Notes: generated by a model from the letters alone, not told the origin. DNA of 43,384 nt from a virus (IMGVR_UViG_2925908680_000005:1-43384), one strand, 5' to 3'; numbered from the stretch's first letter, positions 1-41,843 are shown. Numbers and translations: made by a program.

Positions 1-1866
1 TCACGTAGTACCCAATATAGTCGTACCATCTATGGTTTCGACTCCCGCCGGGGCCAATAATTGCTGTATCCAGCCAATAGCATGCCCTCGCTCAACGCAC
101 TGGGAGAAAAACGCACGCTGCTTTGCTCTGGTAAAGGCAACAAAAAAAGTGTTTAGCTCTTCACCCCGTTGCGGCGTAAGGCTCCACCAAGTCTGATTGT
201 CGAGCCCATAAAATATCATCGTATGGAACTCAAGACCTTTGCTTTTATGGACGGTCATCAGAGCTACCTGGCCAATACCTTCGAACTCATCCAGCGCCTC
301 CGTCCAGCTGCTGCTGTGTTCTGCACACTCTTTCAGGAGAGTGACAAATCCACTCCACACCCTCTCAAAATCTCTTGCACGCTGGTAAGCGGGAAAGGAT
401 TGCCGAAGCCTAGGGGTCCCGACAAATTCAAGAAGCATCTCTGCAATCTCTTCCGCCGAATCCGGACTAGGCTGGCGATGCGCTAGCTCTGTCCTTAATT
501 TACGGACGAATGCTTCAAGCTTAACCAGCAATCGTTCCTGCGTGAGATCGTTATCCGGATCGGCAGCCTCCAAAAACAGATAGTTCTGCTGGGTCTGCTC
601 CCAGTTTTCCGGGCTTCGCTCCGTCGCTCCCAGGCGGAGTAAAGGAACAAATATACCGGTCAGCTCTTCACCAAGCAGATCCTGTATCTGAATTTCACCG
701 ACTGACCGGGCCGCATTTCTGATCCTGAGACCTCGTGCCGCAAAAGAGGGGGCTATTTCACCCTCAACCTGATCTGCCCGCATTCTGATCAGAATCGCTA
801 CATCATGTGGTGCAACACGCTCTGACTGAACCTCACGGCTCACCCATTCAGCCAGATAATTGTTCTCGTCATCTGCGCTCCGGAATTGCCAGATAGCAGA
901 AACCTCACCTTCGATTTCACGGGTCCCTTGTGCCTGCACTTCTTCCACATTATCGTCTATCCGGCGGGCAATCTCGTGCTGAATACGAACCAGATCCACA
1001 TGTGACCGCCAGTTAGAAAGCAGTGTTATGCGTCTGGCAGCAAAGTCGTTTTCAAACTGGTCAAAGGCGTCATTCATGGCTCCCGCCCATCCCATGATAC
1101 GCTGCTTATCATCGCCGACTGCCGTAAAGACAGCATCGCTACCATCGAATGCCGTTAGCAGCATGTCATACTGGGCATAGGTGGTGTCCTGGTATTCATC
1201 AAGAAAGACGATGGGATATGTTGCCTGTAAGGCCCGGCGGATATATGAATTTTCCTGAAGCAGCAGTTTTACAAGCCTGTTTATCATCGGGAAGGACAGG
1301 GATATCTCGTCGCCCCCGAAGAATTGTTCATGCCAGTAATCTGCTAACGCACGATGTACTTCAGATCCATTTGACAAGTCAATTGGCAGGTCTGTCAGAA
1401 GCAGTCTTCTCTCAAGCTGTTGAGCACTCACTCCGTGATAGCCATGTCGCTCAATAAAATCGTCATAATCCCTACGAAACGGATTAACAATCTGATACGT
1501 ACCGGGCGCATTGAACGGCTCAGGTAAAGCCGGACGAAACCGGTCCAGAAGCCCCTTGGTAAAGGCATCAAAAGTCATCGAATCAAAGCGCCGCGCCTGA
1601 TCTCTCGGGCAACGCTTTGCAACCCTTTCGGCGAGGTTTTGGGCGGCATCTTTTTTAAAGCTGATGGCCAGAATACGTTTGGGTGCCGGACAAATACCTG
1701 TCTGCAGAAGATAGGTCGCCTTCTGTGCCAGAAACTCAGTTTTTCCGGCACCGGCACCAGCGGTCACAAGGATGCTGCTATCGGTTTCACGTAAAGCCTC
1801 CCACGCTCTCCCTTCCAGACCACCGACACCCTGAGGTACCCAGTCGTCTCTGCTTACGCGGGTCAT
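1..1866 (-). CDS. UvrD/PcrA-like superfamily-1 DNA helicase (GajB-like partner of an OLD-family nuclease)
   Basis: 621-aa ORF ending at a stop codon at the window edge; helicase motifs visible in translation: AGAGAGKT (Walker A), DEYQDT (motif II), VGDDKQRI, TVHKSKGLEF, VAFTRAK; start overlaps upstream gene stop by 4 nt. Confidence 0.8.
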   Translation of the reverse strand: MTRVSRDDWVPQGVGGLEGRAWEALRETDSSILVTAGAGAGKTEFLAQKATYLLQTGICPAPKRILAISFKKDAAQNLAERVAKRCPRDQARRFDSMTFDAFTKGLLDRFRPALPEPFNAPGTYQIVNPFRRDYDDFIERHGYHGVSAQQLERRLLLTDLPIDLSNGSEVHRALADYWHEQFFGGDEISLSFPMINRLVKLLLQENSYIRRALQATYPIVFLDEYQDTTYAQYDMLLTAFDGSDAVFTAVGDDKQRIMGWAGAMNDAFDQFENDFAARRITLLSNWRSHVDLVRIQHEIARRIDDNVEEVQAQGTREIEGEVSAIWQFRSADDENNYLAEWVSREVQSERVAPHDVAILIRMRADQVEGEIAPSFAARGLRIRNAARSVGEIQIQDLLGEELTGIFVPLLRLGATERSPENWEQTQQNYLFLEAADPDNDLTQERLLVKLEAFVRKLRTELAHRQPSPDSAEEIAEMLLEFVGTPRLRQSFPAYQRARDFERVWSGFVTLLKECAEHSSSWTEALDEFEGIGQVALMTVHKSKGLEFHTMIFYGLDNQTWWSLTPQRGEELNTFFVAFTRAKQRAFFSQCVERGHAIGWIQQLLAPAGVETIDGTTILGTT

Positions 1867-3824
1867 TCATTCTCTCCTGACAGATTAAGCTTATCCGTAA
1901 CGTACTCAATGAGCGCCCTGAGCTCTACAGGAGCGGACGCAGTAACACCGCCGCCCGCGATACGGGAAAAAGCCGCAAGGTGAGTTTCGGGCTTACTGCG
2001 GCTCAGGAACAGATACGGATACCATTTGAAAGCGTCATCATAATGCGCGGTATACAAGGCAGGATTACCACCTGTTTTCAGCGTACTGACCTTTTTGGCT
2101 TGAATAGCAGCAGCACTACTCTGGGGTCCATTGCCACCTGGATTGGCAACCTGATAAGCGGTTGGAAAGGCGAGCAACATGGCAAAATCGAGATCAATGG
2201 GATAGGAAAAGAAAACTCCTTCCCTCCTGAATGCTTGAAGCCATTGACCTTGCAGGCCTTCATTATAAAGCTGTTGGTCGGTAAGCTGAGCAGCATTAGC
2301 ACCATTGGTGCTCCCCAAATTACTCCCGATAGCGGCCAAATTCTGAAGGCAGCTTCTCATGGCATTCGCCCCACCATGTCGGCGCCCCAGATCAAGATCG
2401 AGCAAAGTGGCATGTGGAATCTCAAGATCATTCAGCAGCCGCCAGAAATGCGCTACGAACCGTCCACCGAGCGGAACGACGGGAACGAATGATGGATCAA
2501 GGGAAACACCCATCTCTTCCGCAATTTTCGGAATAACTACTCGCTCTGAGTCTCCCTCACCCAGGATTACAAATCGCGCAAAATAAAGTTCGGGGTATGC
2601 CTTTACAGCCAGCCTGACATAAACGCTTGCCTCAACATCATCTTCAGGCAGGGTCAGTTCTCGGATCGATGAGCACCGAGCGCTCCGGTCCATACGAAAA
2701 TATCTCACTTCCTCCGGCTCTATCCGGCTCAGGATAGATGGGGAATGGCTAGATAGCAGAACCTGCGCGGAAGGCAGTGCGCCAATCTCTCTCGCCTGCT
2801 TGATGATGCGAGATAAAAAGAACGGTGACAGGCTGTTTTCTGGTTCTTCGATGGCAAGAATCGTCAGGTGAATACGGCGTAACTTATCCTGTTCAAATGA
2901 GCTGTCATCAGCAGGCAAAGAAAATGCTTCCCGCTCGGTTTCGAGCGTTGCCGCTGTAAGAGCGATATGGAACAGAGAGCGCTGACCGTCACTCAGCTCG
3001 GACAAACGACGCTCCTGACCTTCTTCATCAGGCGTAAAAGTAAATTCGGCTTTACGAACAAGCTCCTCAAAACGGTTCTCGATGAGCCTTAAACGCGGTT
3101 TACTGTCTGTATCGGCCTCATGGACCTGTTGCCAACGCTTCGAAAGACGCTCCAGCAGAAACTTCGACGGCTCCTCTTCCTCGAAACTGCTCTGGATCTG
3201 ACCGGCATTAACATAGCTTGCATCCCTAAATGCCGTCGACCATTTGGCAGCCTGCCATAACCGCCCTTTTAGAAGGGCGGTCACTTGAGTCGTCGCATCA
3301 CGATTTGCCGGTAAGTAAATAAACTGGATTGAAGAGCGCTCTACAGCCTGAACCCTGGAACAGTCATCCCATTCAAAATTATCATCCAGGGCTCTTATCC
3401 AGCGTATATCCTCCTCAATTGCTCCCTCCGGCGTACCGTCATCCGTCCATGTTGCTTGTAGTCGTATCCGGGCCTTAAGGGGCTCTCCCTCACCGGAAGC
3501 CGCCATCTGATTAAAGAACTCCGGAACGGCATCAAGAGGAGAAGCGTCTTGCTCTTCCAGTTCAGGGAAGGCAAGTACCGCTTCGACAAACAGACTGTCG
3601 CCAGACTGCAGCTCCTGCCGGTCAATAGGTATGTGAAAATCTCGACGCTGTACCGATCGCTGCGCTGATGTTGTACCAAACAACCTGGACACAGCTTGCA
3701 GCACTGCCGTCTTTCCGGAGCCGTTTCCGCCGACAAGTATTGTCAGTTCTTCCTCAAAATTTAGCTCGACCACCTCATGCCCGAAACAACGAAAATTCTG
3801 TAGCTTTATCTTCTCTATTTTCAT
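1863..3824 (-). CDS. OLD-family ABC ATPase with C-terminal TOPRIM nuclease domain (GajA-like / class 2 OLD)
   Basis: 653-aa ORF; N-terminus MKIEKIKLQNFRCF with Walker A GGNGSGKT; C-terminal TOPRIM-like glutamate (ILGEGDSE) and DxD (LLDLDLG); translationally coupled to the downstream helicase. Confidence 0.8.
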   Translation of the reverse strand: MKIEKIKLQNFRCFGHEVVELNFEEELTILVGGNGSGKTAVLQAVSRLFGTTSAQRSVQRRDFHIPIDRQELQSGDSLFVEAVLAFPELEEQDASPLDAVPEFFNQMAASGEGEPLKARIRLQATWTDDGTPEGAIEEDIRWIRALDDNFEWDDCSRVQAVERSSIQFIYLPANRDATTQVTALLKGRLWQAAKWSTAFRDASYVNAGQIQSSFEEEEPSKFLLERLSKRWQQVHEADTDSKPRLRLIENRFEELVRKAEFTFTPDEEGQERRLSELSDGQRSLFHIALTAATLETEREAFSLPADDSSFEQDKLRRIHLTILAIEEPENSLSPFFLSRIIKQAREIGALPSAQVLLSSHSPSILSRIEPEEVRYFRMDRSARCSSIRELTLPEDDVEASVYVRLAVKAYPELYFARFVILGEGDSERVVIPKIAEEMGVSLDPSFVPVVPLGGRFVAHFWRLLNDLEIPHATLLDLDLGRRHGGANAMRSCLQNLAAIGSNLGSTNGANAAQLTDQQLYNEGLQGQWLQAFRREGVFFSYPIDLDFAMLLAFPTAYQVANPGGNGPQSSAAAIQAKKVSTLKTGGNPALYTAHYDDAFKWYPYLFLSRSKPETHLAAFSRIAGGGVTASAPVELRALIEYVTDKLNLSGENE

Positions 3825-3872: not shown

Positions 3873-5108
3873 CTAAATAACCCACTCATCAATCATATCA
3901 GCCCAGTCCTGCAACATAGATGTACGCTGATCACGATACTCGGCTTTGTTATATATCGCCCTCACACCTTTTTGCTCATGTGCCAGGCATTTCTCTATCC
4001 AATCGGTGTTGTAACCGGCTTCATGGAGTAAGGTACTTGCTGTACGCCTCAGATCGTGGGGTCCAAACTTGGCAAGGGACTGCCCTTCTTTCTGAGCCAG
4101 CTTGTAAGTCATCGTCATCACCCGGTTTAGCGTGGCACTGCTCATGGGCACGTCAGAATCGTAACGCGACGGCAGAACATAATCCGATCCACCGGAGAAC
4201 GTCTTCAAAGCGATGAGAATGTCCATGGCCTGCCTGGATAGAAACACCAGGTGAGGATTTCGCCGCTTCATCCTTTCTTTAGGGATCGTCCAGAGCGCTT
4301 CGCTGAAGTTGATCTCACTCCAGGTAGCATTCGTCAGCTCGCTTTTTCGCACCATCGTCAACAACAACAGTTTTACCGCTGCGCGGATCGATGGTGATGT
4401 ACCAATACGCCCCATGTACTGATACATGATCCTAATTTCTTCGGGCGTCAGGGTTCGATCTCTCGGCTCAAACCTGGCAATGCTTGCTGGCCGCACCAGG
4501 TCTGCTGGGTTCTCAACCTTCTGGCCTCGCTCAGTGGCCCAGCGGTATACCTGGAGTACAATCTCACGCGCATGAACCGCCGTAGCAGGCGCACCGCGCT
4601 CTACGATGGCGTCGGTAAGTGCTCGCAAGTCCTCGTGGGTGATTTCGGTCAGCTTCTGATTGCCGAATTTCGTTTCCAGCTCTCTCGTATAAACCGAGCG
4701 GCGCATATCACGGGTAGAGTCGGCCATCTGGTAGCCACGTAGCCACTTTTCCGCCCAGGCACCAAAGGTTTCAGCCCCTTTTACACGCGCCTTGTCCCGT
4801 GCCTTCTCCTTCGCTGGCGACTTTCCATCAGCGACCATCCGCTTGGCTTCACTAAGTCGCTCACGGGCTTCTGCCAGAGTGATACCCCCAACGCCATAGC
4901 GGCCAAAGGTGATTGTCTCTTGCCTGCCATTGATCGAGTAGTTGTAACGGAATGAGATAGAGCCGGCAGGAGTGACAGCCACATAGAGGCCATCCCGGTC
5001 ATTCACCTTGTAGAGTTTATCCCTCGGCTTGAGGTTGCGCAGCTTGGTATCGGTCAGCAAGAGTCTTATCCTTCTTCGATTCCAATACCATGCTGGAAGA
5101 TTACCCAA
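3873..5108 (-). CDS. int: tyrosine site-specific integrase (P4/CP4-57-like, DUF4102-type N-terminus)
   Basis: 411-aa ORF; N-terminal LTDTKLRNLKP...GLYVAV arm-binding-type domain; C-terminal catalytic region HDLRRTAST...AHE...Y typical of tyrosine recombinases. Confidence 0.9.
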   Translation of the reverse strand: MGNLPAWYWNRRRIRLLLTDTKLRNLKPRDKLYKVNDRDGLYVAVTPAGSISFRYNYSINGRQETITFGRYGVGGITLAEARERLSEAKRMVADGKSPAKEKARDKARVKGAETFGAWAEKWLRGYQMADSTRDMRRSVYTRELETKFGNQKLTEITHEDLRALTDAIVERGAPATAVHAREIVLQVYRWATERGQKVENPADLVRPASIARFEPRDRTLTPEEIRIMYQYMGRIGTSPSIRAAVKLLLLTMVRKSELTNATWSEINFSEALWTIPKERMKRRNPHLVFLSRQAMDILIALKTFSGGSDYVLPSRYDSDVPMSSATLNRVMTMTYKLAQKEGQSLAKFGPHDLRRTASTLLHEAGYNTDWIEKCLAHEQKGVRAIYNKAEYRDQRTSMLQDWADMIDEWVI

Positions 5109-7380: not shown

Positions 7381-7395
7381 TTACCTTTTGGGTGA
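7381..7395. promoter_or_regulatory. imperfect copy of the TTACC-N5-GGTAA palindrome (TTACC TTTTG GGTGA) about 30 bp upstream of the acyltransferase start
   Basis: read directly. Confidence 0.35.
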
Positions 7396-7424: not shown

Positions 7425-8540
7425 ATGGACATCCTTTCAATGATAAAGAATGAATTAAAATCAATCCAAATTCTTAGAGGTTTGGCGGCACTTATGGTCG
7501 TTCTATACCACTTTAGGACCGTTCTTAATTATGATAATGTCAGGATGGGTGATTATCTTTTTGGTAAGGGGTTTATTGGTGTTGATTTATTTTTCGTAAT
7601 TAGTGGATTCATAATGGCTTACACGACCAACTTGACTCATGACGCTATTGCCGATGTAAAATCATTTGCAATTAAAAGGGTTAGTAGAATATATCCTGTT
7701 CTTTTTACTTCATTTATTATTGCGTCTTTATCATTCATGAATTTTGAAAGGGTATTATCACAGTCTTTTTTTGAAACACTAAGCAGCCTTGCCTTGATTC
7801 CTACAACAAGTTCTTTGCCGCCATTTTTTATAGATACACATTCAATACTTGGTGTTAGGTGGACTTTAAATTATGAGGTATATTTCTATTCTATTTTTGC
7901 GATATCTTTATTTTTTGGAAAGAGAAGGTATTATGTTCTACTGGCATGGATTATTATGACAGTATTTTTTACTCAAATACTAATTAATGGATCATTCAGT
8001 GCCAAGGCTGTAAGCCCTAGATTTGAAAGTCCATGGTTGTCAATGATTACAAACTCTATCGTTCTTGATTTTGCAATTGGCGTTATTGTAGCAATGGCAA
8101 TTGAGGCGGGAATAATAATAAATAGAAGATTATCAATTGCCTCTTTGGTTTTTGTTGCTTATGTTTCAATGAACCAGATAGCTGTAGTAAAGGGTCACGG
8201 ACTCTCAGAGTTTGGAATGTACGCAGCAATAATTGTTTATTTATGTGTTTGCCTTGAAAAAAATGGATTTAGTTTTAATTCGCCAGCGCTAGAGCATTTG
8301 GGTAATATTTCTTATTCTTTATACCTATTGCATCTGTCGGTAAGTACATTCATCGGAATAATAGTTACAAATCTCGGAGTTAGGGAATACTTTTCAAATG
8401 GCATTTATATGGTAACACTTGTAGCCATTAGTATAATGTCAGCACACATCTCGTATAAGTATATTGAGTTATCGCTATCGAGGAGGGTAAGAGGATGGAT
8501 GATGATAAAATCTGGCATCCTTGCCAAAAATAAAAATTAA
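7425..8540 (+). CDS. acyltransferase family 3 membrane protein (O-antigen acetyltransferase-like; likely lysogenic conversion gene)
   Basis: 371 aa, multi-pass membrane protein with family-3 N-terminus (RGLAALMVVLYHF...GVDLFFVISGF); strongly AT-rich relative to flanks; opposite strand to surrounding late genes. Confidence 0.8.
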   Translation: MDILSMIKNELKSIQILRGLAALMVVLYHFRTVLNYDNVRMGDYLFGKGFIGVDLFFVISGFIMAYTTNLTHDAIADVKSFAIKRVSRIYPVLFTSFIIASLSFMNFERVLSQSFFETLSSLALIPTTSSLPPFFIDTHSILGVRWTLNYEVYFYSIFAISLFFGKRRYYVLLAWIIMTVFFTQILINGSFSAKAVSPRFESPWLSMITNSIVLDFAIGVIVAMAIEAGIIINRRLSIASLVFVAYVSMNQIAVVKGHGLSEFGMYAAIIVYLCVCLEKNGFSFNSPALEHLGNISYSLYLLHLSVSTFIGIIVTNLGVREYFSNGIYMVTLVAISIMSAHISYKYIELSLSRRVRGWMMIKSGILAKNKN

Positions 8541-30543: not shown

Positions 30544-30620
30544 GTGGCATTAGCTCAGTTGGACAGAGCAACCGCCTTCTAAGCGGTTGGTCGCAGGTTC
30601 GAATCCTGCATGCCACGCCA
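30544..30620 (+). tRNA. tRNA-Arg (anticodon UCU), phage-encoded
   Basis: cloverleaf folded by hand: 7-bp acceptor GTGGCAT/ATGCCAC, D-arm GCTC-AGTTGGACA-GAGC, anticodon stem ACCGC/GCGGT with loop CTTCTAA, T-arm GCAGG-TTCGAAT-CCTGC, discriminator G, encoded CCA. Confidence 0.85.
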
Positions 30621-36473: not shown

Positions 36474-37274
36474 TTACTTGATAAATCCTGCCGCCTTTCC
36501 TCGCCTGTATTCCTCCATCAGCCACTGCGCCGGTGTTATTCCCCCCAAGGTGGCGGCGTTAGGCATACACCCGAAACTTCGCCCTGGTGGATGGTAAACG
36601 TCTCTCCCTGTGTCCGGAGGCGTACTCATGGGCTCTGGCTTTGCCTGTATGCTGATCACCGGATCGGGTATCTGCTGTCCGGAAGCCACCTTTTTCGCCC
36701 AATCATCGAGCAGCCTGCGCGCGTGTTTCTCAACCTCAATCTCGCTAAGCTGGCGCTGATACATTGCACGGCGGGTATCACATACGACCCAGTACATAAC
36801 CGGATGTCGCCACGGGAATCTTTCGGGACCACCAGGATATAAACTTTTTTCCTTGCTGTACCGGTGAAACTCCGCCATCACATCGTCAATGGTAACGCCA
36901 AGAACCATCTTGCTGTCTTTACACCACTTGATAAATTGCCCTGGCGACGGCCAGAACGGAGATTCACTGGCGCGGGCGTGGCGCATACCAGCAGAAACCT
37001 GTTCACGGGTTCGGATCCCCCCTTCGGCAAACGCAGCAATCCACTGCTGTTTTGCAGCAACTTCCTGCTCTGGCGTCTTCAGGTTGGTTACCACTGCCGC
37101 CGGAAACAGTTGTTTCAGCTGTTTGAAAAGGGCATCAACAAGCCTCTCTGCTGACATGTTCACCACATTGTCATTGTTGACGTATTGATGCTCATAACCT
37201 GACATGCGAGAAAGGGCTTCTCCGTCACGGTTTTGTATCGCGGTAAAAACGTTGTTCACAAGAAATCCTCCCAC
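36474..37274 (-). CDS. replication protein P-like (helicase loader)
   Basis: 266 aa; central region (FPAAVVTNL...QWIAAFAEGGIRTREQVSAGMRHARASESPFWPSPGQFIKWC) resembles lambda P as recalled from memory. Confidence 0.7.
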   Translation of the reverse strand: MGGFLVNNVFTAIQNRDGEALSRMSGYEHQYVNNDNVVNMSAERLVDALFKQLKQLFPAAVVTNLKTPEQEVAAKQQWIAAFAEGGIRTREQVSAGMRHARASESPFWPSPGQFIKWCKDSKMVLGVTIDDVMAEFHRYSKEKSLYPGGPERFPWRHPVMYWVVCDTRRAMYQRQLSEIEVEKHARRLLDDWAKKVASGQQIPDPVISIQAKPEPMSTPPDTGRDVYHPPGRSFGCMPNAATLGGITPAQWLMEEYRRGKAAGFIK

Positions 37275-38143
37275 GCTTCAGGGCTGTTCCAGTGCGGAAC
37301 GTTGTTATCAGGTAATGTTGATTGCTTCTGTCTGCTAATCTGCAGCCGCCTTGCCAGCTTCTGCTCCCACTGTGCCTGATGGTATGCCTTACCCTCAGCC
37401 ATCCAGTAAATTCTGAACTCTGCAAGTTCCTGTGCCGTTGGCAGACTGTCCAGGTAGATCCCCTGCAATGAGCTTTTCCGAAGAAAGTCATCTGATGGCT
37501 GCCATTGTTCATGCATGACAAATTTTCCTAATTGCCCTGGCCCACCAGGAGGAACAAAGTTATTCATCACGGCGTTGTTTGCGCCGGGGTCATGAGGCAC
37601 AGAATCCCCGGTTTTTGTCCTGCTCTCCCTCTCTTGGTTAAATGACTGGTTATATGACTGGTTCTGGATCCCGTTTTTGGGATCATTCAACATCCCGTTT
37701 TTGGGATCATTCAACATCCCGTTTTTGGGATCATTCAACATCCCGTTTTTGGGATCATTCAACATCCCGTTTTTGGGATCATTCAACATCCCGTTTTTGG
37801 GTATATTCCCGTTTTCGGTAACATTACCGTTTTCGGGTTCATTACCCCCTTCCCGGTTGCCTTTAATGTTCCCGTTTTTGGTTATATTAAGAGAGAAAAC
37901 CCGCACTCTTTTCGTCGCTCCCTTTCTCTCTCCGGTATCTGAAATAAGCCCCATTTTCATGAGCGATATAAGCCCGGCCTGCACGGTTTTTTTATTCAAG
38001 CAAGTGTCTTTAACGAGGCGTTCTATGCTGGGGTAGCAGAGGTTATATTCATCGGCTCTGTCAGCCATCGAGAGCAGTATGAGCTTTAATGATGAGCTGC
38101 CTGGATCTGTCTCCCAGGCCCAATCTGTTGCATGTCTGCTCAT
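37256..38143 (-). CDS. replication initiator O-like protein with in-gene iterons
   Basis: 295 aa; N-terminal winged-HTH-like domain; central GMLNDPKN x5 peptide repeat encoded by tandem 24-bp DNA repeats. Confidence 0.7.
   Translation of the reverse strand: MSRHATDWAWETDPGSSSLKLILLSMADRADEYNLCYPSIERLVKDTCLNKKTVQAGLISLMKMGLISDTGERKGATKRVRVFSLNITKNGNIKGNREGGNEPENGNVTENGNIPKNGMLNDPKNGMLNDPKNGMLNDPKNGMLNDPKNGMLNDPKNGIQNQSYNQSFNQERESRTKTGDSVPHDPGANNAVMNNFVPPGGPGQLGKFVMHEQWQPSDDFLRKSSLQGIYLDSLPTAQELAEFRIYWMAEGKAYHQAQWEQKLARRLQISRQKQSTLPDNNVPHWNSPEAWEDFL
37666..37881. repeat. iteron array (candidate origin of replication): five perfect tandem 24-bp repeats (37681-37800) flanked by degenerate 14-25-bp copies
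   Basis: unit GATCATTCAACATCCCGTTTTTGG repeated head-to-tail five times; degenerate CCGTTTT(C/T)GG-containing copies on both sides. Confidence 0.7.
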
Positions 38144-38509: not shown

Positions 38510-38740
38510 TCATGAGTAGAAGAAGTATGCCAGTTCTGCTTTTGAGCGCAGCCATTGTCTTGTTTTACAGGCTTTAAAAAGCCCATTCATCAATACCTTA
38601 CCTGGCATTTTGCGCTTACCTGTTAAGTGAGTCTGGATATAGTGACTCGTCGTTCCGGCTTCCTGTGCGAAGGCTTCACGCTCATCCGGAGTAAGTGCAA
38701 GCCAGTGCTTTTTGAAATCGAAATGTCCGTTATCGCTCAT
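38510..38740 (-). CDS. Cro-like small DNA-binding regulator
   Basis: 76 aa, divergent from repressor gene. Confidence 0.5.
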   Translation of the reverse strand: MSDNGHFDFKKHWLALTPDEREAFAQEAGTTSHYIQTHLTGKRKMPGKVLMNGLFKACKTRQWLRSKAELAYFFYS

Positions 38741-38776: not shown

Positions 38777-38839
38777 TCACCCATAAGGTAACAAAAATCA
38801 AGGATAGTTACCTATGGGGTGCATTTACCTGTTGGGTAA
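38777..38839. promoter_or_regulatory. tripartite operator region between cro-like and repressor genes: TCACC CATAA GGTAA (38777-38791), TTACC TATGG GGTGC (38808-38822), TTACC TGTTG GGTAA (38825-38839)
   Basis: read directly; one perfect and two one-or-two-mismatch copies in 63 bp. Confidence 0.6.
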
Positions 38840-38894: not shown

Positions 38895-39479
38895 ATGAAA
38901 AGTATCCAGGACGTCCGCAGGCAAAATCTCAACGACTTGATCGACCGTGAATTCAATGGTGTTCAGACGCGGATGGCAGAAAAACTTGGAACTCAGGCAA
39001 ATCTGGTAAACCGCTGGGCTCTTGGCAAGAAGGTTATCGGCGACCAGGTTGCGCGAAAAATTGAAGCTGCCGCCAATAAACCCCGTAACTGGCTTGATAT
39101 CGATCGCTCGCTTTCTCAAGAAGGTTTTCAGCCTGTCGGACCAAGCGACATTGGTCAGCTGGCGGCTCACAACCTGGAACGCTGGATGAGCGAAAGCCGA
39201 GACCTTTCAACGCAGGGAAAACTTCACCGCGCATCCGGCGTCGCCCAGGTGACAATCAGCCGCCTGTTAAACAATGAGGTCAGCGTTTCCATTTCCACCC
39301 TGGAGAATGTTGCATCCGCATTCGGGCGTCACGGCTATGAATTACTGATTCACCCGCACGACCCTGCGACTATCAACTATGATCGCTCGCGCTACGCATT
39401 GTTACCTGAAACAGAGAAGGCAAAGATCGAAAGTTACATTGAATTTGTCATCAACCAGAACGAAAAAAGCAAACAATAA
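38895..39479 (+). CDS. immunity repressor-like protein with two HTH domains and no recognisable LexA-type autocleavage domain
   Basis: 194 aa; two XRE-type HTH-like segments; no Ala-Gly/Ser-Lys peptidase motif seen. Confidence 0.6.
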   Translation: MKSIQDVRRQNLNDLIDREFNGVQTRMAEKLGTQANLVNRWALGKKVIGDQVARKIEAAANKPRNWLDIDRSLSQEGFQPVGPSDIGQLAAHNLERWMSESRDLSTQGKLHRASGVAQVTISRLLNNEVSVSISTLENVASAFGRHGYELLIHPHDPATINYDRSRYALLPETEKAKIESYIEFVINQNEKSKQ

Positions 39480-39500
39480 AACTATAGTTTTCAGAAAGTA

Positions 39501-39525
39501 AGCCGCCTCATGGCGGCTTTTTTAT
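39501..39525 (+). terminator. intrinsic terminator after repressor gene
   Basis: AGCCGCC-TCAT-GGCGGCT stem followed by TTTTTTA. Confidence 0.75.
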
Positions 39526-39536
39526 TGCCCATGAAA

Positions 39537-39613
39537 TTACCTTACGGGTAATTTTTTTAACTCATATCTATTGACAACAAACCAAATACGCATAATTATT
39601 ACCTCAACGGTAA
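39537..39613 (+). promoter_or_regulatory. PL-like early promoter (TTGACA 39571-39576, 16-bp spacer, ATAATT 39593-39598) bracketed by two perfect operator palindromes (39537-39551 and 39599-39613)
   Basis: read directly. Confidence 0.6.
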
Positions 39614-39787: not shown

Positions 39788-40087
39788 ATGAACGTTAATC
39801 AGCAGAAAAATCTTCAAAAAATCATGCTGGCATTCGACAAGGACTACCGCCTGTCAGAACAGCTATATGACCGACAAGTTGAACTGATTGAGAGCATCCG
39901 ACTTCATCAACTGTCCTCAACTTTCGACGTTGTAACAGGCAAAGGCGTTCGTCAGGAAGTGCTGGAGGCAGCTAAAGACAGCCCTGAGTTCGAAGAACTT
40001 ATGGATGCCTACCGGCGCGAGGCAATGGCAATTATCGCCCGCTGGGATCTGGCTGATCAGCTTGATGGGCAGAGGGACGCGGCATGA
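39788..40087 (+). CDS. hypothetical early protein
   Basis: 99 aa from the MNVNQQ methionine with GGGAGGG ribosome-binding site; stop overlaps next start. Confidence 0.45.
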   Translation: MNVNQQKNLQKIMLAFDKDYRLSEQLYDRQVELIESIRLHQLSSTFDVVTGKGVRQEVLEAAKDSPEFEELMDAYRREAMAIIARWDLADQLDGQRDAA

Positions 40088-40905
40088 AGCCGGGAATTTA
40101 TTTCGACATCAGCAACGAAGACTACCACGCCGGTGACGGCGTGAGTAAGTCGCAACTGGACATGGTTGCCAAGAATCCGGCGCTTCTCAAATGGGTTCAG
40201 GCAGCACCAGAAGACGAAGAGAAAAAGTCTGCACTGGATATGGGAACCGCATTGCACTGTCTGCTTCTGGAACCTGGAGAATTCGACAAACGCTTCATCG
40301 TTTCACCGAAATTCGATCGTCGGACAAAACAAGGTAAAGCTGACGAAGAAGCATTTCTTCGTGATGTGGCGGATATGGGTATTACGGTACTTGATGTCGA
40401 GCAGTGGCGAAAACTGGAGCTGATGCGTGATAGCGCAATGGCTCATCCGGCGGCACGCTGGATGCTGGAAGCACCTGGTTACTGCGAAGCATCAATGTAC
40501 TGGAACGATGAAGATACGGGTGAGTTGTGCCGAATTCGTCCAGACAAATGGCTGAACGAGCACAACGTGATCGTCGACGTGAAAAAGGTTGCAGATATGG
40601 ACCGTTTTGCACGCCACATCGAGGAATTCCGCTACCACGTGCAGGACGCAATGTACCGCGAAGGTGCAATGAGGGTTACTGGTCAGCCGCATGGTTTTTT
40701 CTTTCTTGCCGTGAGCGAAAGCATTGATTGTGGTCGGTATCCGGTACGCGTGTTCGAGCTGGATGCGCAGGATGTCGATGCCGGGCACGCTCTGTTCCGC
40801 CGGGATCTGAATACCTATCACGAATGCCGCATCAATGATGAATGGGGTGGTGTGGAAATCATTAAACGCCCTGAGTGGGCACGCAAACAGGATATGTACA
40901 TATGA
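40084..40905 (+). CDS. PD-(D/E)XK exonuclease (RecE-like nuclease domain)
   Basis: 273 aa; nuclease-like pattern (IRPD...IVDVKK); translationally coupled to annealase. Confidence 0.6.
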   Translation: MKPGIYFDISNEDYHAGDGVSKSQLDMVAKNPALLKWVQAAPEDEEKKSALDMGTALHCLLLEPGEFDKRFIVSPKFDRRTKQGKADEEAFLRDVADMGITVLDVEQWRKLELMRDSAMAHPAARWMLEAPGYCEASMYWNDEDTGELCRIRPDKWLNEHNVIVDVKKVADMDRFARHIEEFRYHVQDAMYREGAMRVTGQPHGFFFLAVSESIDCGRYPVRVFELDAQDVDAGHALFRRDLNTYHECRINDEWGGVEIIKRPEWARKQDMYI

Positions 40906-41843
40906 GCAACGACATCGCAAACATCAACGCACCAGTAGACACAGCAATCGCTGGAACTGCTGCAACTATTTTCAGCCCAGACGGCTTGAACCAACTGATG
41001 AAATTCGCCGAGGTAATGGCGCAAAGCCGCGTAACGGTACCGGCGCACCTCGCTGGGAAACCAGCTGATTGCATGGCCGTGGCAATGCAGGCTGCGCAGT
41101 GGGGAATGAACCCGTTTGCCGTGGCTCAGAAAACCCATGTTGTGAACGGCACGCTAGGTTATGAAGCCCAATTAGTAAACGCAGTTATCTCAACAATGTC
41201 GCCAACAAAAGATCGCATCAACTACGAGTGGTTCGGGCCGTGGGAACGCGTGATCGGTAAGTTTGTTGAGAAAACATCCAAAAACGGCAATCCGTATATC
41301 GCACCAGGCTGGACTCTAAAAGACGAAGAAGGTTGCGGTGTTCGCGTATGGGCAACCATGAAGGGCGAGGATCAACCTCGAGTGCTTGAGTTAATGCTGT
41401 CTCAAGCACAGGTAAGAAACTCCACACTTTGGGCCAGTGATCCGAAACAACAACTCGCATACCTTGCAACAAAACGCTGGTCTCGCTTGCACTGTCCTGA
41501 CGTAATCATGGGCGTCTACACACCAGACGAATTACAGGAAACGGCACCGCGCGTTGAGCGAGACATTACTCCGCAAACGACCACTGCTGCGGGAATGAAC
41601 AGTCTGATTAACGCTAAACAAGTGAAAAATCCTGATGAGCAAACGCGTAAAGCGGATAGCCGTGATCCAGAAGAAATGCTAATGGCCTTTACCAGCGCAG
41701 CGATGAATTACAGCACTGTCTCCGAACTGGATAAAGCTTACAAATACATTGCACAAAAACTTTCAGATGATGACGAACTGCTGGCAAAAGCCACCGACGT
41801 TTACAGCGTTCGTCGGGAAGAATTAAACGAAACATCTATGTAA
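40902..41843 (+). CDS. RecT/Red-beta family single-strand annealing protein
   Basis: about 313 aa from the MSNDIANIN methionine; C-terminal region (WASDPKQQLAYLATKRW...ERDITPQ) resembles lambda Bet as recalled from memory. Confidence 0.6.
   Translation: MSNDIANINAPVDTAIAGTAATIFSPDGLNQLMKFAEVMAQSRVTVPAHLAGKPADCMAVAMQAAQWGMNPFAVAQKTHVVNGTLGYEAQLVNAVISTMSPTKDRINYEWFGPWERVIGKFVEKTSKNGNPYIAPGWTLKDEEGCGVRVWATMKGEDQPRVLELMLSQAQVRNSTLWASDPKQQLAYLATKRWSRLHCPDVIMGVYTPDELQETAPRVERDITPQTTTAAGMNSLINAKQVKNPDEQTRKADSRDPEEMLMAFTSAAMNYSTVSELDKAYKYIAQKLSDDDELLAKATDVYSVRREELNETSM

Follow-up and report, generated by a model that had tools for sequence, protein, structure and literature searches.

A Predicted Antirepressor-Inactivated Lysogeny Repressor of the SPC32H Rep Family in a phiV10/epsilon15-Type Phage Genome With an IS2-Split Bro-N Gene

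Introduction

The closest described counterpart of the genetic switch considered in this study is the Rep–Ant pair of the Salmonella phage SPC32H (Kim and Ryu, 2013, J Virol; Kim et al., 2016, PNAS; PDB 5D4Z and 5D50). According to passages in two reports, SPC32H Rep binds DNA as a tetramer in which the members of each pair of DNA-binding domains are contributed by different dimers (PMC9638917, PMC9986798), and the protein has its DNA-binding domain at the N-terminus, a dimerization domain in the middle, and a C-terminal domain for tetramerization and Ant binding (PMC9986798, citing Kim et al., 2016). A review places the system of Kim and Ryu (2013) among the Salmonella prophages in which the self-cleavage of LexA allows an antirepressor to be produced, which then blocks the repressor through protein–protein contact (PMC7380047). 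Here, we analyzed an open reading frame (ORF) at positions 38895–39479 (plus strand), which occupies the repressor position in a 43,384-nucleotide stretch of viral DNA (IMGVR_UViG_2925908680_000005:1-43384, hereafter the window) and which we call rep, together with its candidate antirepressor genes. In the initial annotation, made from the sequence alone, the product was described as having two helix-turn-helix (HTH) domains and no visible autocleavage domain, so that induction would depend on an antirepressor. The primary papers on SPC32H reportedly found that Rep stays uncleaved during the SOS response.

AntC of N15 is another LexA-controlled antirepressor. Tum of coliphage 186 and the antirepressors of Gifsy-1/3 and Fels-2 likewise combine a non-cleavable repressor with an SOS signal relayed through a LexA-repressed small antirepressor (PMC7380047), an arrangement that we predict for the window as well; however, no sequence relationship was found between these LexA-controlled antirepressors and the one described here, and the repressor architecture differs. 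The immI region of P1 (C4 RNA-icd-ant) and the isrK-orf45-anrP region of Gifsy-1 (PMC4825925) are comparable in that isrK and C4 RNAs lie directly upstream of a Bro-N antirepressor gene in the window, whereas that antirepressor ends in an SPC32H-Ant-like domain, its promoter abuts a Rep-type operator, and its gene is split by IS2. As with lambda cI and the LexA-type S24 repressors, rep lies between divergent early operons and is accompanied by multiple operators with a cooperative or looping geometry, but Rep has neither an S24 domain nor a cleavage site and has an additional HTH-fold domain with a predicted role in dimerization. ImmR/ImmA (COG2856) systems differ in their adjacent HExxH metalloprotease gene (Peptidase_M78), as the neighbors of rep gave no M78 match.

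Among these systems, SPC32H belongs to the same genus as the phage in the window, Uetakevirus, and carries the two genes at the same positions. Sequence features of that switch were found in the window: a Rep homologue of ∼195 amino acids (aa) that aligns over its full length, a small Ant homologue (∼86 aa) with 87% identity, a predicted LexA site at the ant promoter in the corresponding place, and the same operator palindrome with the same spacings. Two differences were evident, namely that Rep is only 43% identical and that the E. coli lineage has an additional Bro-N-fused paralogue of Ant with an isrK/C4 leader, which in the window is disrupted by IS2.

A Repressor Gene of the SPC32H Rep Family

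The window is the genome of a temperate podophage of the phiV10/epsilon15 type (Uetakevirus). Over the 1.5 kb around rep, the identity is 98% to Escherichia phage phiV10 and 97–98% to several further epsilon15-group members of Uetakevirus, and the gene order near rep is the same as in phiV10, epsilon15, and SPC32H. One side of rep is occupied by a lambda-P-like replication gene, a gene for a DnaT-type replication initiator, a small ORF, and a divergent gene in the cro/cII position (38510–38740, minus strand), whose 76-aa product matches phrog_35 (“transcriptional repressor”) and is homologous to gp39 of epsilon15. On the other side, a rho-independent terminator of rep (39500–39519, plus strand), annotated at the same place in phiV10, is followed by the rightward early operon, which encodes RecE/RecT and an AlpA-type excisionase.

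The 194-aa product of rep is 99.5% identical to phiV10 p40 and to ORF21 of vB_EcoP_ZX5 (hereafter ZX5), and 42.7% identical to SPC32H Rep, with 53% identity in aa 1–72 and 38% in aa 88–194. When the PDB sequences were searched with Rep (phmmer), only two entries were matched: the chain 5D50_A, named “Repressor,” aligned with aa 1–190 (E = 3.5e-42), and 5D4Z_A, a C-terminal fragment of the same repressor, aligned with aa 89–190 (E = 3.6e-20). A Foldseek search with the structural model of Rep also placed 5D50 and 5D4Z first, that is, the Rep–Ant complex and the Repressor “from Salmonella-temperate phage,” and the middle domain of Rep gave a TM-score of 0.75, normalized to the target. Furthermore, overexpression of the ZX5 repressor abolished free phage and reduced the transcripts of lysis genes by >99.9% (PMC9782041). 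On the basis of sequence homology and position, we consider that this ORF probably encodes the master lysogeny repressor of the phage, a member of the SPC32H Rep family that is inactivated by an antirepressor, and we assign this reading a probability of roughly 0.85.

The two HTH segments noted in the initial annotation were confirmed. In Pfam, HTH_3 matched Rep (E = 1.2e-9) in two stretches, of which aa 106–147 was the better, and HTH_26, HTH_31, and a LacI-type HTH matched the same C-terminal segment; a match of the Cro-like YdaS_toxin family to aa 21–61 (E = 3e-4) was under the cut-off of Pfam. The repressor families of PHROGs matched the halves separately, at aa 1–76 (E = 2.8e-11 and 4e-10) and at aa 92–152, and NCBIfam gave sub-threshold matches only. 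The AlphaFold model, for which 26 members of the family served as input (mean pLDDT, the per-residue confidence score, 76), contained two all-helical modules, at residues 4–59 and 83–151, joined by a low-confidence linker (74–84), with one HTH pair in each module (24–31/35–43 and 107–114/118–125). The record of phiV10p40 already carries the annotation “two helix-turn-helix motifs.” As folds, therefore, both domains stand, but as a functional description the phrase is misleading, since the second corresponds to the part of SPC32H Rep that is presented as a dimerization domain in the relevant passage of PMC9986798. A recent internal duplication of Rep was considered and is unsupported, because the N- and C-terminal halves gave no alignment with each other in BLASTP; we thus take the protein to contain two HTH folds that did not arise by recent duplication.

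Based on these matches, we divided Rep into three parts, the last of which was missing from the initial two-domain description. The N-terminal HTH domain (aa 1 to ∼70; 38895–39104, plus strand), with its recognition helix at approximately aa 35–43, is supported by the YdaS/Cro-like and PHROGs matches, and its DNA-binding role is predicted by homology to SPC32H Rep, as outlined in PMC9986798. The middle HTH_3-fold domain (aa ∼88–152; 39156–39350, plus strand) is homologous to the SPC32H dimerization domain according to Pfam, 5D4Z_A, and Foldseek. The C-terminal module (aa ∼155–194; 39357–39476, plus strand) aligned with both 5D50_A and 5D4Z_A and is homologous to the SPC32H tetramerization and Ant-binding domain (CAD), whose function is described in parts of PMC9986798 and PMC9638917. 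In the model, this end of the protein has low pLDDT at residues 157–166, followed by a long helix (172–193), and Y162, L170, and F184 are invariant in the family.

The absence of an autocleavage domain was borne out when Rep was searched for Peptidase_S24 (PF00717): no match was obtained in Pfam even at E ≤ 1, and none of 86 Rep homologues from Escherichia, Citrobacter, Lelliottia, Serratia, and Raoultella has the domain in its precomputed Pfam list. Additionally, neither an Ala-Gly nor a Cys-Gly dipeptide occurs anywhere in the Rep protein, and the PDB alignment and the AlphaFold model show that its full length is taken up by modules other than S24.

The Small Antirepressor Gene ant and Its LexA Box

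The candidate for the antirepressor is a small gene adjoining the tailspike gene (11065–11322, plus strand), the same position as that of ant in SPC32H. The 85-aa product matched 5D50_E, “Anti-repressor protein,” over aa 2–84 in a PDB search (E = 1.4e-46), and tblastn gave 86.7% identity to the SPC32H gene annotated as “ant.” Its profile matches were limited to phrog_450 and its own relatives, with no Pfam or NCBIfam family. The initial annotation had treated this gene as the only intact candidate left after the loss of a larger Bro-N paralogue. The paralogy is real, as the gene product is 41% identical to the C-terminus of the Bro-N protein; the gene is no leftover or fallback, however, and represents the canonical orthologue of SPC32H ant.

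A LexA (SOS) box, TACTGTATAAATATACAGTT, lies upstream of ant (11026–11045, plus strand), and its near-consensus core, CTGTATAAATATACAG, at 11028–11043 ends 21 base pairs (bp) before the ATG. The motif CTGT-N8-ACAG has three matches in the window, and only the one at 11028–11043 has an AT-rich spacer. When the sequences between the tailspike gene and ant were aligned for eight phages, whose hosts are E. coli, Salmonella, Enterobacter, and Klebsiella, the box was retained. Within the same box, SPC32N differs from its sister phage SPC32H by one base (ACAG to AAAG). In the primary papers on SPC32H, a single base change in the ant LexA box is said to have made SPC32N constitutively lytic.

The two genes also occur together. 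In the phage collection, rep and ant were found in 37 and 35 records, respectively, with near-identical counts for each host genus, and in 5426 complete E. coli genomes they were found in 555 and 523, so that about one in 10 of these genomes has the pair. Ant is more conserved than Rep in other relatives as well: the identities are 83% for Ant and 43% for Rep in epsilon15, and 64% and 45% (whole Rep) in a Klebsiella phage.

Rep-Type Operators Across the Window

The operator was identified as the palindrome ATTACC-N5-GGTAAT, and the whole window was scanned for TTACC-N5-GGTAA with at most one mismatch. This gave 13 matches, against 0.56 expected, and the sites are intergenic. The same palindrome occurs in the same relative places in SPC32H and epsilon15, and the RefSeq record of epsilon15 annotates seven palindromes as “repressor / lysogeny” binding sites.

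In the interval between rep and the cro-like gene, an O_R-like triplet (38777–38839) is formed by sites at 38777–38791 (TCACCCATAAGGTAA), 38808–38822 (TTACCTATGGGGTGC), and 38825–38839 (TTACCTGTTGGGTAA). Its spacing of 31 + 17 bp has its like in SPC32H and epsilon15 (30/31 + 17 bp), and a promoter-like site on the minus strand (38794–38766) overlaps the first operator of the triplet. Downstream of the rep terminator, an O_L-like pair (39537–39613, plus strand), consisting of sites at 39537–39551 and 39599–39613 with centers 62 bp apart, flanks the promoter-like sequence TTGACA-17-AATTAT (39571–39599) of the rightward early operon. A second pair with the 62-bp spacing (36360 and 36422) lies past the replication genes, and pairs so spaced are also present in SPC32H and epsilon15. 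Further matches lie at 7381, 10974, 11354, 30207, and 33005/33023; sites of this type occur upstream of the terminase and head genes, of ant, and of the Bro-N unit, and the intergenic regions concerned include those of late and cargo genes. One of them (7381–7395, with one mismatch) is found ∼30 bp before the start of an Acyl_transf_3 gene (7425–8540, plus strand) of the O-antigen-modifying type known from phiV10.

Because TTACC operators are spread over many intergenic regions and the 62-bp spacing is conserved, these data suggest that one repressor directly guards many promoters. The spacing corresponds to about six helical turns, which would fit a single Rep tetramer bridging two sites. In the 28 members of the Rep family compared, N36, R40, and W41 of the helix 35–43 are invariant and L37 is kept in 27, while the rest of Rep diverges, and this pattern fits a reading of the shared operator by the N-terminal domain.

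The Bro-N Gene, Its RNA Leader, and the IS2 Insertion

The second antirepressor candidate lies beyond ant. Its unit includes a Rep-type operator (11354–11368) that abuts the promoter-like sequence TTTACA-17-CATAGT (11370–11398), the two together spanning 11354–11398 on the plus strand. This is followed on the same strand by a small RNA of the isrK family with its terminator (11405–11481; Rfam RF01394, 74.7 bits against a gathering score of 50), by an element of the C4 antisense RNA family in the leader of the gene (11500–11586; RF01695, 79.5 bits against 45), and by the 5′ fragment of the Bro-N gene (codons 1–90; 11635–11904). The leader of ∼300 bp has a mean column identity of 91%, Enterobacter phage Tyrion included, and is more conserved than the coding sequence.

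As the initial annotation had stated, the gene is split by IS2. The 1,331-bp element (11905–13235) is inserted after codon 90, so that the reading frame is not intact, with insC (12779–13189) and insD (11916–12821) on the minus strand (ORFs of 136 and 301 aa) and the 5-bp target duplication CTATC at 11900–11904 and 13236–13240; the copy is 99% identical to IS2 in other records. The 3′ fragment (codons 91–228; 13241–13657, plus strand) encodes the Ant-like C-terminal domain (aa 147–224). Removal of IS2 and one copy of CTATC in silico restored an ORF of 228 aa, the product of which has a Bro-N domain at its N-terminus (E = 5.2e-20) but no NCBIfam match. Compared with the ZX5 anti-repressor ORF4, the restored protein shows 81% identity, with only two residues differing downstream of the insertion point. 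Its final 78 residues share 41% identity with Ant (E = 2e-19), and phrog_450 is matched by both proteins. The Ant-like 3′ part also stays open past IS2 as a frame of its own (13344–13657, plus strand) with an internal ATG at 13344. None of the 5426 complete E. coli genomes has the same IS2/Bro-N junction, and the insertion is therefore strain-specific. No polar effect of IS2 on other genes is expected because the gene after Bro-N is convergent.

The Bro-N gene is absent from the ant locus of SPC32H and epsilon15, and the phiV10 copy diverges after residue 174 and is 195 aa in total, without most of the Ant-like part. A scan of the window found no LexA box at the Bro-N gene. Given also the operator, isrK, and C4 upstream, we regard the gene as a putative accessory antirepressor under the control of Rep and the RNA leader. 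It was thus the ranking of the two candidates in the initial annotation, with Bro-N as the main antirepressor, that had to be reversed. The window differs from phiV10 and ZX5 in the IS2 within the Bro-N gene and in a Gabija gene pair adjoining int. The ZX5 paper did not recognize the small Ant, which is annotated as hypothetical in the ZX5 record.

Predicted Induction Switch and Alternative Explanations

Taken together, these results are consistent with the following switch. The N-terminal HTH of Rep would read ATTACC-N5-GGTAAT at the triplet between rep and the cro-like gene, at the 62-bp pairs of the early promoters, and at the single intergenic sites; the second HTH-fold domain would serve dimerization, and the C-terminal ∼40 residues would serve both tetramerization and the docking of the antirepressor. 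Having no protease domain, Rep would not be cleaved. LexA, bound at 11028–11043, would hold ant off until DNA damage removes it and Ant is made; Ant would then bind the C-terminal region of Rep, the tetramer would be taken apart, and the operators would be freed. The Bro-N protein, with its Ant-like C-terminus, would be made from a Rep-guarded promoter through the isrK/C4 leader, and it may act only after derepression begins, or else in trans on relatives that enter the cell or already reside in it. IS2 would knock out Bro-N and leave ant unaffected, and SOS induction should thus survive the insertion. The dependence of induction on an antirepressor, as proposed in the initial annotation, is supported by the full-length homology to the crystallized SPC32H pair and by the conserved LexA box. 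The reasoning from raw sequence was sound, and what it pointed to had already been published and deposited in the PDB: apart from the reversed roles of the two antirepressor candidates, the mechanism proposed there is essentially the published Rep–Ant switch of SPC32H.

Several observations weigh against this reading. First, the identity to the SPC32H counterpart is only 43% for Rep, and 38% in its aa 88–194, compared with 87% for Ant, and the contact between Rep and Ant is assumed here by homology. Second, a Rep-type operator, TTACCTTTCGGGTAA (10974–10988), which is kept in all eight phages aligned in the tailspike–ant intergenic region and is designated “repressor” in the epsilon15 record, precedes the LexA box of ant by ∼40 bp in each of these relatives. 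The operator may serve the divergent tailspike promoter, or Rep might repress ant as well, which would complicate a trigger that depends on LexA only. Third, a consensus scan placed no promoter hexamers over the ant LexA box, and two candidates picked by hand were both weak. Finally, overexpression of the Bro-N homologue in ZX5 lowered lysogeny, with prophage counts reduced ∼1000-fold and repressor transcripts by 75% (PMC9782041); this effect favors lysis, so the loss of Bro-N could lower the efficiency of induction.

An extension of the SPC32H-type switch would give Bro-N a role of its own. The phiV10 lineage may run an undescribed two-stage antirepressor circuit, in which the SOS-triggered Ant acts first and the Bro-N protein with its fused Ant domain acts second. 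The second protein would be made only after the operator has been vacated by Rep and the isrK/C4 leader has opened. It would then either lock the switch by positive feedback or work in trans, on related prophages in the same cell or on phages that enter it. If this is true, the IS2-disrupted copy in the window is a natural knock-out of the second stage, and the identities of 87% for Ant and 43% for Rep would be in keeping with antirepressors that cross-react between related phages even where the repressors have diverged. We regard this circuit as rather unlikely.

A stronger claim for the same gene is that Bro-N is the principal inducer, in which case its split by IS2 would leave the prophage poorly inducible or not inducible, with the small Ant as a weak substitute. 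The ZX5 overexpression results, the 81% identity of the restored protein to ZX5 ORF4, and the homology of its C-terminal 78 aa to Ant all speak for this explanation. However, SPC32H and epsilon15 lack the gene, and the induction of SPC32H is described through Ant in the relevant parts of PMC7380047 and PMC9638917; phiV10, a viable temperate phage, has a copy without the Ant-like end; and, in place of an SOS box, the gene has a Rep-type operator and an isrK/C4 leader, the kind of leader that keeps the anrP mRNA of Gifsy-1 untranslated. Although the isrK-orf45-anrP unit of Gifsy-1 is transcribed, translation of its antirepressor-like product AnrP requires short IsrK in trans (PMC4825925). Moreover, ant and its LexA box are intact in the window, and Ant is 87% identical to the crystallized protein. 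We therefore consider Bro-N improbable as the principal inducer; it is a genuine modulator and a real candidate for a second antirepressor, with nothing in the present evidence that marks it as the SOS trigger.

The other two alternatives concern Rep itself. Both HTH domains could bind DNA, the second being the real reader of the operator. The matches of HTH_3, HTH_26, and LacI in Pfam are indeed strongest at aa 104–148, two residues of the second HTH are highly conserved across the family (Q118 in 26 of 28 members and R123 in 28 of 28), and the ZX5 paper assigns DNA binding to a C-terminal TreR-like HTH, which it assumed from annotation (PMC9782041). Against this, the passage of PMC9986798 on SPC32H Rep describes the equivalent region as the dimerization domain and places the DNA-binding domain at the N-terminus, and the half-site TTACC is the same in phages in which aa 100–150 are only 31% identical, while N36, R40, and W41 are invariant; we thus give this explanation very little credence.

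In other elements, ImmA-like metalloproteases cut repressors of the XRE type that lack an S24 domain. Proteolysis of Rep, whether through cryptic self-cleavage or through an ImmA/IrrE-type (COG2856) partner protease, is nevertheless the least probable explanation, since, although DdrO and Stl are among the distant fold matches of Rep in Foldseek, the S24 domain and the dipeptides mentioned above are lacking, the sole HExxH motif among ORFs of ≥80 aa sits in a 202-aa protein without a Pfam match, no M78/ImmA-type peptidase was found among the early-region ORFs scanned (the neighbors of rep included), and a complete and conserved alternative is present in Ant and its LexA box.

The practical value of these findings lies in the transfer of annotation to Ant and Rep, which RefSeq labels as “hypothetical protein” and “helix-turn-helix domain-containing protein,” respectively, and of which the former belongs to a family listed by PHROGs as being of unknown function.

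Other Features of the Genome

The window lacks the attP core that was reported for ZX5. The Gabija pair is on the minus strand (1–3824), adjoining the integrase gene (3873–5108): GajB (1–1866) has UvrD helicase domains and scored 714 bits in PADLOC, and GajA (1863–3824), with an ATPase domain and an OLD-type TOPRIM domain, scored 790 bits. Because phiV10 is empty between the DUF1382 gene and int, the pair represents an added cargo module. A gene for tRNA-Arg (anticodon TCT; 30544–30620, plus strand) lies among genes transcribed on the opposite strand. In the rightward early operon, the RecE-like PDDEXK nuclease (40084–40905) and RecT (40875–41843), both on the plus strand, are encoded by separate overlapping ORFs, whereas a single fused coding sequence is annotated in phiV10. 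Finally, the gene for the DnaT-type initiator (37256–38143) contains a perfect 24-bp tandem repeat of 5.6 copies (37668–37801), which encodes repeats of NGMLNDPK and probably represents the iterons of the replication origin.

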